The notes below the pieces were generated by a model, which was not told the DNA's origin, did not search any database, and saw only the letters and a program-made list of their open reading frames with translations. A stretch of DNA of 52,979 bases from Escherichia phage LF82-11: sequence record PV660454, one strand, 5' to 3'. Shown piece by piece: positions 6,020-50,989 of this stretch (the stretch's first letter is position 1; each line of letters begins with the position of its first letter). Made by a program: the position numbers and the translations under genes.

Positions 6020-6047
6020 TTGACCGTTTAGCAAAAAGTGCTATTAT
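6020..6047 (+). promoter_or_regulatory. sigma70-like promoter for major capsid gene with an embedded inverted-repeat box
   Basis: TTGACC, 16-bp spacer, TATTAT; spacer contains TAGCAAAAAGTGCTA. Confidence 0.5.
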
Positions 6048-33288: not shown

Positions 33289-33462
33289 ATGAAAGTTAAA
33301 TGTATTCGCAATGACTCTAAATCGCTCCCGTTCCATGTGAACCAGTTTTACTCTATCGGGTTCGATCACGGCGGCGGGAACTTCGAAATTTATGACGGTT
33401 GCGGCTCCTGTATTATTGCCCCGCTAAATGGGCATTATCTGGAATTCGTTATCGTCAAATAA
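33289..33462 (+). CDS. small protein of the MKxKC paralogue family
   Basis: 57 aa starting MKVKCI; not in ORF track. Confidence 0.35.
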   Translation: MKVKCIRNDSKSLPFHVNQFYSIGFDHGGGNFEIYDGCGSCIIAPLNGHYLEFVIVK

Positions 33463-35255: not shown

Positions 35256-36842
35256 TTACCCCAGCAAGCGTGGATTAACGTAAATCTTATCACCGATCAG
35301 GCAAGTGTAATTCTTCTCGTCAAGCATCGGCAGCAAGTGATCTTTGATTCGTGTCATTGTTCCGGCCTGGCCTTCGAATGGTCGAACCTTGCGCGCGGCC
35401 TCGTAAAGCGCCCGAAGACCAACAACGCCCTTCCCCTGCTTTCCGCTCTTGATCAGCAAGTCAATAAGCTTGTTCATTTCTGCTGAATCGCCAGCGTGCC
35501 CGGCAGACGACGCGGAAGAAAGATAGGTCTTGCTCAGCTCGTTAAACATGATCACGGCCTCCTGCATTGTGTCAAGCTCAATCTCTCGACTCTTCGGCGC
35601 ATTGCTTCCGTTTGGTGAGAACCAGTTACGGATCACATGCAGAACCGACGCGATACGAATCGCCTGTTTATCGAACTTGCCCAGCGCACCGCGTAACATG
35701 GTGTGCGAGTATTTCCCGCCGTCTGCCAAGTGTGGCTCCATCGCCTGGCGTGCGTTGTTAAGGTACTTCATCGCGCTCTTGCTCACCGTGAGCTTAACGT
35801 CAACCTCACTCATGATGGCGTGTATCAGCTTGAAGTAATCAGCTTTCAGGCCGCCGTCAATAGGCTCGTAAGTTGACTCGCCATTGTCATTCACGAAAAC
35901 ACGCTCACCAAGGAATGACTTCTCACGAACCAGCAAGAAACGCTCAGAAACACCGATACCGCGCGCACCTGCATTCATGATCGCGTTGATTGTCTCGTCC
36001 TGCGCGATAACCGAAATACAACCCATAGCCACGAATGACATGTTGTTATCAGCGTTCGCACGAGCGATAGACACGTTCCCTGCATCCCATGCTTTCAGCA
36101 CAAGCTCGCTGTTTGTCTTCTTCGAACCGTCACCATACGTCATGCCCAACAGGCTGTTAACGGATGTCGCTTCGTCCGAGATCACAGCGAAGTTGCCTTG
36201 ACGGTTGTTAATGCGTGCCAAGCCTTCAGGCGTGGTATCTGAAACAGGGAAAACGATATCGCAAAGGCGCTCAAGCTTCTCTTCAAGATCCTCTTTCTCC
36301 TCAAACAGCGAGGCCATTTCAGATGGCGCTTTCTCCTGTTTCATTTCCTTCGCCAGCGCAGACAGTTTGGCGAGAATCTTTTTACGCTCACGCTTACGAG
36401 CCTCGTTGAGTCGCTCAGTCTCCGCGATCATTGGCGCGATGGATAGCGAGTTGATTGCGGATTTCCCCGTTGATGGTGGCTGACTGGTTACAACGTAGAG
36501 CGCAGTTGGTTGTTGCGTTCCGTGATAGTCAACCGTGAACCTACCCAGCATGGCGGCAGACACGCAACCTACAAAGTGCATATAGGCTGAAGACTCAGGG
36601 AATTGAACCGATCTCGCGGCGTTGCGTGAGAGCTTGCCGACCACATCACTATCGTTGCCCAGGGAAATAACAGGATATTTATCATTACCTGAATCAATCT
36701 CTACCGGAGCCTTCCAGAAGGATTGGGATTGACGATATCCATTCGCATTTATGGCAACGCGGAGCGGCGGCAACCCTTCGGCCTTTGCAACCTCGATCAC
36801 TTGTTCCGGCGAAAGTTTATCATCATTGAAAATATCGAACAT
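35256..36842 (-). CDS. P-loop NTPase, putative replication ATPase/helicase
   Basis: Walker A-like PPSTGKS and Walker B-like FAVISDE; RBS AAGGAG. Confidence 0.45.
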   Translation of the reverse strand: MFDIFNDDKLSPEQVIEVAKAEGLPPLRVAINANGYRQSQSFWKAPVEIDSGNDKYPVISLGNDSDVVGKLSRNAARSVQFPESSAYMHFVGCVSAAMLGRFTVDYHGTQQPTALYVVTSQPPSTGKSAINSLSIAPMIAETERLNEARKRERKKILAKLSALAKEMKQEKAPSEMASLFEEKEDLEEKLERLCDIVFPVSDTTPEGLARINNRQGNFAVISDEATSVNSLLGMTYGDGSKKTNSELVLKAWDAGNVSIARANADNNMSFVAMGCISVIAQDETINAIMNAGARGIGVSERFLLVREKSFLGERVFVNDNGESTYEPIDGGLKADYFKLIHAIMSEVDVKLTVSKSAMKYLNNARQAMEPHLADGGKYSHTMLRGALGKFDKQAIRIASVLHVIRNWFSPNGSNAPKSREIELDTMQEAVIMFNELSKTYLSSASSAGHAGDSAEMNKLIDLLIKSGKQGKGVVGLRALYEAARKVRPFEGQAGTMTRIKDHLLPMLDEKNYTCLIGDKIYVNPRLLG

Positions 36843-36870: not shown

Positions 36871-36913
36871 TGATAGAGCAACCAATGATAGTGCGTTTTG
36901 GCAAAAAGTGCTA
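36871..36913 (-). promoter_or_regulatory. box-promoter module (minus)
   Basis: box read on minus strand, hairpin, TATCAT-like -10 at about 23 bp. Confidence 0.4.
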
Positions 36914-36917
36914 TTGG

Positions 36918-37334
36918 TTATAAATATTTTGCTTCAAATGTTGTGCCGTCTGCGATCGAAAATCCAACCTCCTCGCGGTAAAGGTTCCACGGTGAGCCGT
37001 CCTCGTCAAAGATAAGCCCGGCAACCCCACCAAGCGCCCTGCCTGAATCCACCTGGTAGCGCTTGCCAACCTTAAAGGATTTCTTCATTGGGTTCTTGTG
37101 ATCCAGCGTCATGCACTTCAGGGTTTTAGTTTTCATCTCAACGAATGTTGCAGCAACGACGCCATCCGATGAAACGAAAATATCACCGCTTACGCCAACC
37201 GAAAGCACGATCTTAGCCTTGCCCTTGCCGATTGAAATGTTGCCTTCATCGTCAACTTTCGCCTTATACATGTGGTTAGCGTTGAAGGTTTTAGTTAATG
37301 ACATGGTGCATTTGATCTTGATTGACTTTGACAT
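36918..37334 (-). CDS. tandem-duplicated small-domain protein (paralogue family)
   Basis: two internal copies of the K-x-K-C ... F-K-V-G-K-R-Y module; start moved to ATG 37334 with GAGGAA RBS. Confidence 0.35.
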   Translation of the reverse strand: MSKSIKIKCTMSLTKTFNANHMYKAKVDDEGNISIGKGKAKIVLSVGVSGDIFVSSDGVVAATFVEMKTKTLKCMTLDHKNPMKKSFKVGKRYQVDSGRALGGVAGLIFDEDGSPWNLYREEVGFSIADGTTFEAKYL

Positions 37335-37363
37335 TTTTAGTTCCTCGTTGTTGGTGTGAATGA

Positions 37364-37406
37364 ATAATAACAAAACCCGCCGAAGCGGGTTTAACAAAAA
37401 GTGCTA
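37364..37406 (-). promoter_or_regulatory. box-promoter module (minus)
   Basis: TAGCACTTTTTGTTA on minus strand, 22 bp, TATTAT; box starts at stop of upstream gene. Confidence 0.5.
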
Positions 37407-38096
37407 TTTGTAACGGTTGTACTGGAAGACGGCGCGAGCGAATCCGCGCGGAGTTAGGGAGCGGAGTTGCTTAGTCTTCGCAGACTTTCCGCCGAGGAAC
37501 TTCCAGCCCCAAAAGAAATGCAAGCCTTCCTCTTTTGGTAATGGTGCCTTCTCTGGCTCGCGGAAACCGTTGCCATGCCAGATGCAAGTTTTTTTCGTGT
37601 AGCCGTCTCGCAGTGGCATTTTGGGGTGCCAGGAGCCTTCACGCGCATCGACGTATTGCCCGAAGTCACGAGGATGGAAATAGAATTTAGGCTTGCCCAG
37701 GTTTTCCGGCTTTGACATTGCCCCTACCGGGTTTTCAATCATCCACGGGATCTGGTAGCGTTCGCCAATCTCAATGACAACCTTTGCACACTCAAGCGCA
37801 TATTTCATTTCGGCGTCGTCTCTCTCGTGCTGCGCGCCAGATTGGGCAAACAGAGTGCAATCCGGGAAGCCAAAAACGATATCAGGCTTGGGCAACCCCA
37901 GGATCTCAGCCTTTGTGATGAAATCCTTATCAATCCACGTATTCACATATCGGATATTTGGGTGATTCATCTTCACGGCGTACTCGCCATGATTGCCGGA
38001 GTCAGCGTTGAAGCATATCACCTGACAACCAACCTCAGCCCAAGGCAATCCCATAATGCCGGAGCCGTCAAACAGCGACCATACAACACGCTTCAT
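37404..38096 (-). CDS. compact C5-cytosine methyltransferase-fold protein
   Basis: FDGSG (motif I-like), GFPDC (IV-like), ENP (VI-like), RSLTPRGFARA (IX/X-like); only 230 aa so little room for a target-recognition domain. Confidence 0.5.
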   Translation of the reverse strand: MKRVVWSLFDGSGIMGLPWAEVGCQVICFNADSGNHGEYAVKMNHPNIRYVNTWIDKDFITKAEILGLPKPDIVFGFPDCTLFAQSGAQHERDDAEMKYALECAKVVIEIGERYQIPWMIENPVGAMSKPENLGKPKFYFHPRDFGQYVDAREGSWHPKMPLRDGYTKKTCIWHGNGFREPEKAPLPKEEGLHFFWGWKFLGGKSAKTKQLRSLTPRGFARAVFQYNRYK

Positions 38097-38314
38097 TCTG
38101 CCACCTCTTCAAATTTAGCCACGCCCAGGATTACCCATCCTTTATGGTGCATAGTAACCGCTTGCCACTCGAATGAGCCGTTGCGGCGCTTCTCATCGCC
38201 AGTGATCACAGCATCACCGCCAACCTTCACGGCATCGTAGATTTTACCTTTCGTGAAGTGTGGCTTTTGCTTCTTATCGGTTGGCGAAACAGCGCCAGTA
38301 CATTTCAGTTTCAT
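38093..38314 (-). CDS. small protein of the MKxKC paralogue family
   Basis: MKLKCT...FTKGKIYDA; ATGA-coupled to methyltransferase-like gene. Confidence 0.35.
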   Translation of the reverse strand: MKLKCTGAVSPTDKKQKPHFTKGKIYDAVKVGGDAVITGDEKRRNGSFEWQAVTMHHKGWVILGVAKFEEVAE

Positions 38315-43103: not shown

Positions 43104-43319
43104 ATGGAAACTGTAACAATCGGCGCTAAGCCGCCATCATTTGACAACTTCCCGTCGCAATTCGTTGAGGATGAATACGGTGACGAAACAGAGGTGTCTT
43201 TAATTCACTCGTCAGGCAACAAGTCTGTACTCATGGAAAGCGGCAACATGATTTTCACGCCAGATCAGGCGCGCGAACTGGCTGCGGCTCTCATCAAGGC
43301 GGCTGAGGTGTGCGAATGA
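43104..43319 (+). CDS. hypothetical acidic protein
   Basis: 71 aa from ATG 43104, RBS GAGG. Confidence 0.3.
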   Translation: METVTIGAKPPSFDNFPSQFVEDEYGDETEVSLIHSSGNKSVLMESGNMIFTPDQARELAAALIKAAEVCE

Positions 43320-43525
43320 AGTTCAAAACTACATACGTATCACCGCGCGCTCGCGTTGCATTCAACCTGCGCAAGGGTATGACATACGACGCTGAGAAGA
43401 TTGGCAATCAGATTTCGGTGCGCGTGCCTATCGGTAGGCTCATCATCAAGCTCCAGGGAGAGAGGTTCATGAGTCGCTCAATGACGGGCGAATTACTCGC
43501 GGCATGGGAGGAAGTGAAAAAATGA
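43316..43525 (+). CDS. hypothetical protein (weak paralogue-family member)
   Basis: MKFKTT...KGMTYDA; ATGA-coupled. Confidence 0.3.
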   Translation: MKFKTTYVSPRARVAFNLRKGMTYDAEKIGNQISVRVPIGRLIIKLQGERFMSRSMTGELLAAWEEVKK

Positions 43526-45480: not shown

Positions 45481-45846
45481 ATGAAAGTTAAATGCATTAG
45501 TTCAGACGTTTTGCTTGATGGTTACTACACCCCAGGTAGAGTCTACCGATTAAGGCGAGAAAGGGGCAAAAGCTATAGAACCGTTAAATCAAACAGAGGC
45601 GTTGATCTTGGTGTTATCCACGACCCATTAAAAAGAGGTCGGTTTTTCGTTGCTGGATTTGAACGTTGTGTGTTTGATTCGGCTCCGCACCGATTCGTGA
45701 AGCGCAACCAAAGCGCCGCGCTGGGGCAGATTGAGATCGACTATACGCGATGCAAGCGCAGCATTCGCAATCAGGCTCGCAACATCGCAAAAGAGCACTT
45801 CTCGTGCGGCAAGCTTGAGAAGATTGCGCGAGGCTATAAGCGATAG
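45481..45846 (+). CDS. paralogue-family protein (MKVKC)
   Basis: start moved to ATG 45481 with GGAG RBS; MKVKCISS...YTPGRVYRL. Confidence 0.4.
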   Translation: MKVKCISSDVLLDGYYTPGRVYRLRRERGKSYRTVKSNRGVDLGVIHDPLKRGRFFVAGFERCVFDSAPHRFVKRNQSAALGQIEIDYTRCKRSIRNQARNIAKEHFSCGKLEKIARGYKR

Positions 45847-48586: not shown

Positions 48587-49194
48587 TGGCAACTATCATC
48601 ATTCTGAATGCGCCGCCGCGCGCCGGGAAAGACACGATCGCGAAAATCATCGACGAGCAATACGGCTTGCCAGTTGTGAGCTTCAAAACTCCGATGTTCA
48701 ACATTGCTCGCGGCATCTTGGGCGAAGCGGATTTTAAAGAGTTCATGGCGGTTTACGAAACAGACCGCAAGGACACACAGCCGTTAAGTATTCTGCATGG
48801 CAGCACTTGCCGCGAGTTTATGATCTGGATTAGCGAATCCGTGATTAAGCCTCATTTCGGCAAGAAGCATTTCGGCTGGCTTATGGCTGATTTGCTCAGC
48901 GAAATGGAGGATGATGTTGATCTCACAATTTGCAGCGATGGCGGGTTCCCGGATGAGGTAGAGGCGTTGATTGACTTCGGGCACCGTGTCAAGCTGGTTC
49001 GTATGCACCGTGAAGGCTTCGACTTCTCGAAAGATAGCCGTGACTACATCTACCTTTCCGAAGAGTACAAGAGCAAGCCTGGTGTTGTTGAGTTCGATCT
49101 GACATTGCAGGACGGTTGCCCTAATCTGGCTGCTGAGACTATCGCGTCATTGTTCATTGCCCATCATAAACCAGATAACGAGATCCCTTGGTAA
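48586..49194 (+). CDS. P-loop (deoxy)nucleotide kinase-like protein
   Basis: N-terminal LNAPPRAGKDT Walker A resembling phage dNMP kinase P-loops. Confidence 0.45.
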   Translation: MATIIILNAPPRAGKDTIAKIIDEQYGLPVVSFKTPMFNIARGILGEADFKEFMAVYETDRKDTQPLSILHGSTCREFMIWISESVIKPHFGKKHFGWLMADLLSEMEDDVDLTICSDGGFPDEVEALIDFGHRVKLVRMHREGFDFSKDSRDYIYLSEEYKSKPGVVEFDLTLQDGCPNLAAETIASLFIAHHKPDNEIPW

Positions 49195-49195
49195 A

Positions 49196-49238
49196 TAGCA
49201 CTTTTTGTTAAACCCGCTTCGGCGGGTTTTGTTATTCT
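49196..49238 (+). promoter_or_regulatory. box-promoter module with terminator-like hairpin
   Basis: TAGCACTTTTTGTTA, CCCGC-ttcg-GCGGG plus TTTTG, TATTCT. Confidence 0.45.
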
Positions 49239-49267
49239 TGCTTTAACGAAACGAAATGGAGTGAAGA

Positions 49268-49498
49268 ATGAAAACTTTATCAGAGCTGAAGTCGATCGCG
49301 GCTGACTTGCAGGAGCGAATGAAGCCACTAAACCACAAGCTGGAAAACTCGCGCATTACTATAGCCTCAAGAATGTCTATCGAGTGCTCACTGCGCGAAC
49401 TTAAAATCATGTGGCATGATGCCATGTGCGACGTTCACGCTCACCCTGAGTACGAAGGTGAGTTTAAATTCCAGAAAGAAAACAACCCATACCGATAA
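49268..49498 (+). CDS. hypothetical protein
   Basis: 76 aa, RBS GGAG. Confidence 0.3.
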   Translation: MKTLSELKSIAADLQERMKPLNHKLENSRITIASRMSIECSLRELKIMWHDAMCDVHAHPEYEGEFKFQKENNPYR

Positions 49499-50045: not shown

Positions 50046-50498
50046 ATGAAATTAGTTTGCACATCATCACGCGTCAAAAGCTTCACCGTTGGAAAGAAAT
50101 ATGAAAGCCGCACAGTCGAGCATTACGGAATTGTTACGCACGAGGTGGACGGAGACACCGCTTGCGGCTGGGTGATTAACGATGGCCTGAGCATTTGCGG
50201 AGCTGATCACTCAAACCCAATGGCAACTTTCCGCAAGGATAAGAGCATGATGAAGATGCTTGTTCGCGCATTCGTATTGGTTGCAAAGGCTCGCGGTTGG
50301 GGTGATAGCAAGAGCGGGGCTTACAAATCCTGGAGCGGCACACCTTACAAAAACTCCAGAGATTGGGCGCGAGCTATTGCCTTCAGCTACGATGTTGGGA
50401 GTGTTGCGCGCGAGATAATTGATGAAGATCCTAACGTGAAACTCATCGACCAGGAAGCGGTAAACCTGTTTGCCGAAAACGAGATCGACAACTGGTAA
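50046..50498 (+). CDS. paralogue-family protein (MKLVC)
   Basis: MKLVCTSSRVKSFTVGKKYESRT. Confidence 0.4.
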   Translation: MKLVCTSSRVKSFTVGKKYESRTVEHYGIVTHEVDGDTACGWVINDGLSICGADHSNPMATFRKDKSMMKMLVRAFVLVAKARGWGDSKSGAYKSWSGTPYKNSRDWARAIAFSYDVGSVAREIIDEDPNVKLIDQEAVNLFAENEIDNW

Positions 50499-50560: not shown

Positions 50561-50989
50561 ATGAAATTACGTTGCACATTCCTTGAGCCAGCTTTCGCAA
50601 AAGCTCTGGCTGAGTTCTACACCATCGGCAAAACTTACGCCGCATCCATCAAGCCGGGATCAAAGGTTGGCGCTGTGCTGGTGGAGTCAAACGAAGGCAA
50701 TGAAGGCGATCAGCTTGCAGCAGTTCCGAGCCGCTCAGGGTTCGAGGTTCAAATTAAGAACCAAATTCCGATCGCAAAGTTCGAGGTTGTTGGCAAGCGT
50801 GCGGTGAAGCTTGTTAAGACTGAGAAGCGCGTAACGCTGAAACTTGATGGCGTGGGGAAATCAGATAAGCGCCGATTCCGCCGTGTTTGCCGCCAGTATC
50901 GAAAGTTGAAATTCATCAACCCTGGATTCTATTATGATCTGGAATCCGATCGCCACATGGCTAAACTTGCGCGACATCACCGCCGATAG
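50561..50989 (+). CDS. paralogue-family protein (MKLRC), basic C-terminus
   Basis: MKLRCTF...FYTIGKTYAAS; Arg/Lys-rich C-terminal tail. Confidence 0.4.
   Translation: MKLRCTFLEPAFAKALAEFYTIGKTYAASIKPGSKVGAVLVESNEGNEGDQLAAVPSRSGFEVQIKNQIPIAKFEVVGKRAVKLVKTEKRVTLKLDGVGKSDKRRFRRVCRQYRKLKFINPGFYYDLESDRHMAKLARHHRR

Follow-up and report, generated by a model that had tools for sequence, protein, structure and literature searches.

Genomic context and control modules

The window analysed here, i.e. the whole stretch of DNA with a length of 52,979 bp, is 100% identical to the complete genomes of Escherichia phage LF82-12 and LF82-40, circularly permuted. The GenBank record names no family, and the gene order matches that of the Drexlerviridae phages Bas11, vB_EcoS_NBD2 and JK16. 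The 138-aa open reading frame described in the initial annotation lies at 36918-37334 on the minus strand, and both module strings quoted there are found in it. It is annotated as hypothetical protein XUQ13563.1 (Escherichia phage LF82-12) and encodes a basic protein (pI 9.3). Its neighbours are the gene of a Dcm-like C5 methyltransferase (37404-38096) on one side and that of a DUF3987 helicase (35256-36842) on the other, and this helicase-target-methyltransferase synteny is strictly kept in LF82-12, Bas11, NBD2 and JK16. The features of the locus are the following:

36918..37334, minus strand: CDS of the two-module protein, 138 aa, with the stop codon at 36918-36920 (ORF and translation)
37134..37334, minus strand: N module, residues 1-67 (IKIKC ... 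FNANHMYKAKVDDEG ... ATFVEM), with AF2 strands, hhalign and an alignment of the homologues as evidence
36921..37133, minus strand: C module, residues 68-138 (KTKTLKC ... FKVGKRYQVDSGRALGGVAGLIFDEDG ... TFEAKYL)
37341..37346, minus strand: ribosome-binding site GAGGAA, 6 nt 5' of the ATG (read from the sequence)
37360..37408, minus strand: upstream control module, consisting of the motif AATAGCACTTTTTG, a hairpin and a T/A-rich TATTAT-like element
36902..36915, minus strand: second copy of the motif, directly after the stop codon of the two-module gene and heading the DUF3987 helicase gene

The protein is a full-length member of phrog_2684 (E=3.7e-49, residues 5-138 against profile positions 1-127 of 127). 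Its homologues were collected in 103 clusters, and 823 phage records match it, 548 over the full length and the remainder in the C half only. No enzymatic signature was identified in it, nor any match in Pfam, PADLOC or the PDB sequences.

In the upstream control module the motif (37395-37408, minus strand) overlaps the stop codon of the methyltransferase gene and is accompanied by a terminator-like hairpin, AAACCCGC-TTCG-GCGGGTTT, at 37373-37392 (minus strand). With a copy of the motif on either side, the two-module gene is bracketed as a cassette of its own. Across the window the 14-nt motif, which has the extended form AATAGCACTTTTTG(Y)TAAAAC, gives 15 matches with at most two mismatches, where 0.47 would be expected. 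Its orientation is that of the downstream gene at 14 intergenic sites:

minus strand: 6032-6045, 36902, 37395, 39079, 40241 and 41661
plus strand: 27544, 30106, 33110, 43826, 44495, 45842, 49194 and 50985

Behind each copy come a hairpin with variable sequence but preserved pairing, a TATAAT-like hexamer, a ribosome-binding site and the start codon ATG. From its sequence, the unit looks like a phage-specific promoter/operator or a terminator-promoter module that heads each early-gene cassette. The control modules at 37360-37408 (minus) and 49194-49240 (plus) are almost identical over some 45 nt and share the same hairpin, AAACCCGCTTCGGCGGGTTT; together they constitute a long-range inverted repeat, located upstream of the two-module gene and upstream of 49268-49498.

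The neighbouring methyltransferase (37404-38096, minus strand) is annotated at merely 230 aa. Its Pfam DNA_methylase match is weak (E=0.0017, below the gathering score) and confined to the N-terminal 100 residues, so that it is a short, divergent Dcm-like enzyme.

Two predicted barrels and the fold of Gp54

In the AF2 model the N module has strands at residues 3-12, 22-27, 33-35, 42-46, 52-56 and 59-66, the C module has the same number of strands, and a linker of four residues connects the two. The modules differ clearly in conservation. The N module is variable among the homologues, with a mean column identity of 44% and lineage-specific insertions, whereas the C module is highly conserved (66-77%), with T71, C74, R92, Y93, G106, D110 and G113 invariant. 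The C module is also dipolar: residues 68-99, which cover beta1, the long loop and beta2, have a net charge of about +8, and residues 100-138 one of about -5. We propose that the protein consists of two six-stranded small beta-barrel modules belonging to one very divergent family, the signature of which would be 'K-x-K-C' in beta1, a long loop, 'F-x-x-G-x-x-Y' in beta2 and 'A-x-F-E-x' in the last strand. The codon at 37134-37136 specifies Met67, just before the C module (FVEM-KTKTLKC), where most homologues have Leu (FVEL-KTKTLKC). No ribosome-binding site is visible at a suitable spacing before Met67, so internal initiation seems unlikely.

The model predicts that the C half folds as an autonomous, six-stranded small beta-barrel with a prominent beta1-beta2 loop, i.e. 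that it shares the rare fold seen in Gp54 of phage Bas11. Gp54 is a small six-stranded barrel that binds CapRel by its barrel strands and the beta1-beta2 loop, unlike the SH3-like barrels, which have five strands with a 3-10 helix (PMC11578894). It is a known trigger of bacterial immunity (PDB 9AXB; Pfam PF25180, 'Phage antiviral trigger protein Gp54'). The fold assignment concerns the C module, to which the full-length structural match to Gp54 is almost certainly due. SH3-like and FeoA-type small beta-barrels reach scores that are only about half of that of Gp54.

The structural likeness has no counterpart at the sequence level. At E<=1, PF25180 matched neither the protein itself, nor 25 N modules, nor 22 C modules, while Gp54 scored E=6e-34. 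Comparison with the Gp54 alignment by hhalign was not significant (P=0.07-0.4; C module 0.07, N module 0.37), and no sequence homologue of Gp54 was found in the window. By eye, the 'MKVIRNSDNKL' N module of Bas11 gp48 resembled Gp54, but this likeness was not significant (p=0.07) and was dropped. Gp54 thus shares the fold but lacks the motif, so that K-x-K-C / F-x-x-G-x-x-Y is not a mere by-product of the fold. The two proteins differ in other respects as well. Gp54 is a single acidic module of 66 aa (pI 5.2), limited to 19 clusters, whereas the present protein is basic, has two modules and occurs in about 820 phage genomes. Moreover, Bas11 carries both Gp54 (bas11_0054) and a separate orthologue of the two-module protein, gp48 (bas11_0048).

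A Foldseek search of the BFVD with the model of the C half alone returned many T1-like phage proteins of 62-75 aa (TM 0.6-0.8). One match was a 73-aa protein of NBD2 (TM 0.61, probability 1.0). This entry is very probably NBD2_77, the orthologue of a paralogue encoded at 38093 in the window (see below), since the first 50 kb of NBD2 contain no other CDS of 73 aa, and NBD2_77 is 79.5% identical to that paralogue. Ksap1, the trigger of KpAvs2, was considered as an identity and rejected; it is a 74-aa Dhillonvirus protein with a different context.

Likeness of the halves and the wider module family

The initial annotation held that the module is present twice, and proposed self-alignment of the protein and the DNA as a check. 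That check did not rise above chance for either. Smith-Waterman alignment of residues 1-67 with residues 68-138 (BLOSUM62/45) gave scores of 24-29, which were reached by 13-33% of shuffles, and the best blastp match between the halves covered 7 residues (E=0.27). The DNA self-comparison (blastn, with words of 7-10 nt, and repeat search) yielded matches of 7-24 nt only, mostly out of register, and TRF found no tandem repeat in the gene. Cross-detection by HMM failed as well: the N-module HMM scored -2.6 bits on the C half and the C-module HMM 0.1 bits on the N half.

A different result was obtained when both sides were represented by profiles. For this comparison the alignment of the 103 homologue clusters was divided into an N set and a C set, resulting in hhalign profiles of 25 and 36 sequences, respectively. 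N versus C gave P=0.006-0.039 with match states taken from the first sequence, and P=5.5e-4 (score 22.4) with 50% match-state assignment, at an hhalign probability of just 30%. Column shuffling (n=300) gave a null of 9.9 +/- 2.2 with a maximum of 18.1, so that the observed score was reached by none of the 300 shuffles and lies 5.7 sd above the null; the reversed query scored 10.2. The confident part of the alignment spans about 26 columns and consists of beta1 ('IKIKC/TLKC'), the loop and beta2 ('F..N.LYK / FK.GKRYQ'). These are the columns of the K-x-K-C ... F-x-x-G/N-x-x-Y motif that had been spotted in the initial annotation. The same profiles were also compared, as a control, with about 48 small proteins of the genome that are unrelated to the module (about 190 comparisons), and none gave P<0.009. 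The claim of a module occurring twice thus stands at the level of profiles, and falls at the level of single-sequence self-similarity. Since the signal appears only when both sides are profiles, the likeness of the halves is real but weak: a signal of remote homology rather than a discernible repeat.

By comparison of single sequences with profiles, the module was identified in at least six other genes of the window:

33289..33462, plus strand: single-module paralogue, 57 aa, Pfam DUF7244 (Pfam E=5e-27), nearest relative of the N module
38093..38314, minus strand: single-module paralogue, 73 aa, phrog_4448, of which the family profile links the N and C modules
43316..43525, plus strand: probable family member, 69 aa (MKFKTTY ... 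LRKGMTYDA); hhalign against the 38093-family profile, P=1.2e-3, residues 1-66
45481..45846, plus strand: N-terminal module followed by a C-terminal extension unrelated to it, 121 aa; P=6.9e-5 in hhalign with DUF7244 (residues 1-57)
50046..50498, plus strand: N-terminal module (MKLVCTSSRVKSFTVGKKYES) with an extension, 150 aa; hhalign over residues 1-64/76, P=3.1e-4 against the C module, 1.1e-3 against the N module and 3.9e-3 against the 38093 family
50561..50989, plus strand: N-terminal module followed by an extension of basic character, 142 aa, phrog_34194; P=4e-4 in hhalign with the 38093 family

The module is N-terminal in all six, three of which bear unrelated C-terminal extensions. Pairwise comparisons gave z=4.5 for the paralogue at 33289 against the N module, z=3.6 for that at 45481 against that at 33289, and z=6.1 for that at 50561 against that at 38093. 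PADLOC returned nothing for the members of the module family, and a search of the PDB sequences with the N and C profiles and two of the paralogues gave chance matches only.

The 73-aa paralogue at 38093 connects the two halves. Standard homologue searches for it were sparse (4 loci, 6 clusters), and its family profile was therefore assembled from tblastn matches (16 sequences). By hhalign this profile matches the C module (P=1.6e-4, score 25.6, 64 columns) as well as the N module (P=4.3e-4, score 23.0, 64 columns), in both cases over nearly its whole length, and none of 100 shuffles reached either score. Against Gp54 it remained at the null level in hhalign, and an HMM of the same family did not detect the two-module protein.

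It might be argued that the halves are unrelated, the K-x-K-C / F-x-x-G-x-x-Y likeness being due to chance or to convergence of small all-beta domains on a beta-hairpin signature. The chance-level outcome of the single-sequence and HMM tests, the hhalign probability of only 30% and the short confident alignment of about 26 columns are in line with such an explanation. We nevertheless consider it unlikely, since the profile score far exceeds the column-shuffle null while the reversed control stays at the null level, the roughly 190 comparisons with unrelated proteins of the genome yielded nothing below P=0.009, Gp54 gives no such signal although it is a true structural neighbour, and the two halves match a third family, that of 38093, independently and along its whole length. 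The same evidence upholds two further points of the initial annotation: the module is a real, reusable domain, matched in both halves by the 38093 family, carried by six other genes in the window and, in its C copy, predicted to fold autonomously, and the paralogues are members of a genuine, if very divergent, family rather than a set of chance resemblances, as judged from the profile comparisons, the shuffles and the unrelated-protein control.

Origin of the architecture and a proposed role

The relation of the N module to DUF7244 bears directly on the origin of the two-module protein. A DUF7244 profile of three sequences (33289 of the window, Bas11 gp41 and NBD2_68) matches the N module with P=1.9e-6 and a probability of 90% in hhalign, and the 73-aa family of 38093 with P=1.9e-4, whereas its comparison with the C module is not significant (P=0.06). 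Direct matches to Pfam DUF7244 (PF23896) were obtained for 3 of the 25 N modules (best E=4e-4) and for none of the C modules, for which Pfam yields nothing at all. The N half of the protein studied here does not itself match PF23896 (gathering score 27 bits). A strong profile relation in combination with the lack of a Pfam match indicates that the N half is a remote homologue of DUF7244 and not a member. N modules and DUF7244 proteins share the start 'MKVKC ... LPF-x-V-N-x-x-Y'; the DUF7244 proteins (e.g. 33289-33462 and Bas11 gp41) are standalone and have a length of 56-58 aa, and their genes lie immediately 5' of the holin gene.

The C module, in turn, has at least three kinds of N module as partners. 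When 1.84 billion representative proteins were searched with its profile, it was detected in 29 clusters only, nearly always at the C-terminus of proteins of 117-146 aa and behind differing N parts. In the syntenic orthologue, Bas11 gp48, the N module ('MKVIRNSDNKL') lacks the Cys, and the homologue P0106 bridges this type and that of the protein studied here. Shigella phage JK16 has, between methyltransferase and helicase, a 75-aa protein that consists of the C module alone. Another homologue, P0104 (117 aa, from a Logan contig), consists of two exact truncated copies of the C module; an artefact of assembly or circularisation is its most likely origin, rather than a natural C-C tandem, and it was not used.

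According to the initial annotation the protein arose by internal tandem duplication within one gene. In that scenario a single-module gene would have duplicated at its own site and the two copies joined, with rapid divergence of the N copy thereafter. The adjacency of the modules with a linker of only four residues, the same order of the beta1-loop-beta2 motif in both, and their equal strand count would fit. The halves are not nearest relatives of one another, however: the N module is far nearer to standalone DUF7244, which shows no significant relation to the C module. In addition, the N modules that accompany the C half are not equivalent, the C half also stands alone at the same locus, and similarity between the halves is absent from both the DNA and the single protein sequences, so that no trace of a duplication is left in the DNA. 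We therefore regard the duplication as unlikely; strictly speaking, an ancient one followed by extreme asymmetric divergence is still conceivable. A fusion provides the better explanation of the proximity of the N module to DUF7244, the varied N partners, the C module standing alone in JK16 and the missing DNA trace. In the history that we propose, the C module would be the conserved core of the protein throughout the T1-like (Drexlerviridae-type) phages, and a DUF7244-like N module would have been fused ahead of the C barrel and then exchanged or remodelled repeatedly. Our best explanation as a whole, to which we assign a probability of about 0.6, is that the protein is a non-enzymatic early protein of a T1-like coliphage, a putative binding protein made up of two small beta-barrels of one very divergent family, the C barrel with the Gp54-type fold, with an architecture that resulted from fusion and shuffling of already diverged paralogues.

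By analogy with Gp54, the protein may function in binding. Its conserved C barrel would contact a partner that is itself conserved, in the host or the phage, and candidate contacts are offered by the long, basic beta1-beta2 loop within residues 68-99, comparable to the use of the loop and strands by Gp54 in binding CapRel, with the conserved polar residues K84, R92, Q94, R99, D110 and R120 as candidate contact residues. The variable N barrel would tune the specificity, or allow escape from recognition by host immunity. Many small SH3-like barrels bind DNA or RNA, and the high pI and the strongly positive, conserved loop region, together with the strict helicase-methyltransferase synteny in the four phages, could also point to a nucleic-acid-binding accessory factor of the adjoining DUF3987 helicase or Dcm-like methyltransferase, rather than to a protein-protein adaptor or an immunity-related protein. 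We think this rather improbable: there is no match to a known nucleic-acid-binding family, the nearest structure, that of Gp54, belongs to an acidic protein that binds protein, and synteny is weak functional evidence in compact phage genomes.

The preferred reading, that of a fused two-barrel binding protein, would provide the orphan Gp54, the fold of which has been reported as nearly unique, with a family context, as the same barrel is predicted in a protein that is kept in about 820 T1-like phage genomes. There it is fused to a second, distant module, and several small early genes of the same genome fall into the same divergent family. phrog_2684, which includes the proteins of T1, Bas11 (gp48), Ec_L1 (gp19) and NBD2 (NBD2_75), carries no annotation and no mention of a two-module architecture or a Gp54-like fold, and in the literature we found no description of this architecture, nor of a wider family for Gp54. 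For annotation, a shared domain could replace several 'hypothetical protein' labels, and the members of the module family become concrete candidates for triggers or inhibitors of defence systems. The case also illustrates how small accessory proteins of phages may diversify by fusion and exchange of modules. We consider the importance of these findings to be modest, since they are based mostly on predicted structure and remote-homology statistics and reveal no function. A more far-reaching and rather speculative idea, which we would not expect to hold, is that the Gp54 barrel is the fold of a large, fast-evolving superfamily of T1-like early accessory proteins at the phage-host immunity interface. 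If so, a single genome would hold at least eight modules, with the near-universal two-barrel protein as a conserved core member; the modules would be binders or inhibitors of host factors, recognised by sensors such as CapRel, and the repeated swaps of the N barrel would be the footprint of an arms race.

Finally, the orthologous loci show some differences in gene content and annotation. In Bas11 (MZ501085.1, 12337-12944) bas11_0048 is located six annotated genes from bas11_0054 in one early cluster on the minus strand, and an extra 81-aa gene, bas11_0047, which is missing from the window, lies between bas11_0048 and the helicase gene. The orthologue in NBD2, NBD2_75 (KX130668.1, 46933-47436), is annotated with a length of 167 aa, including a non-homologous leader of 29 residues. 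The conserved start (MKTIKLKV...) lies inside this protein, which suggests that its annotated start is probably too far upstream.
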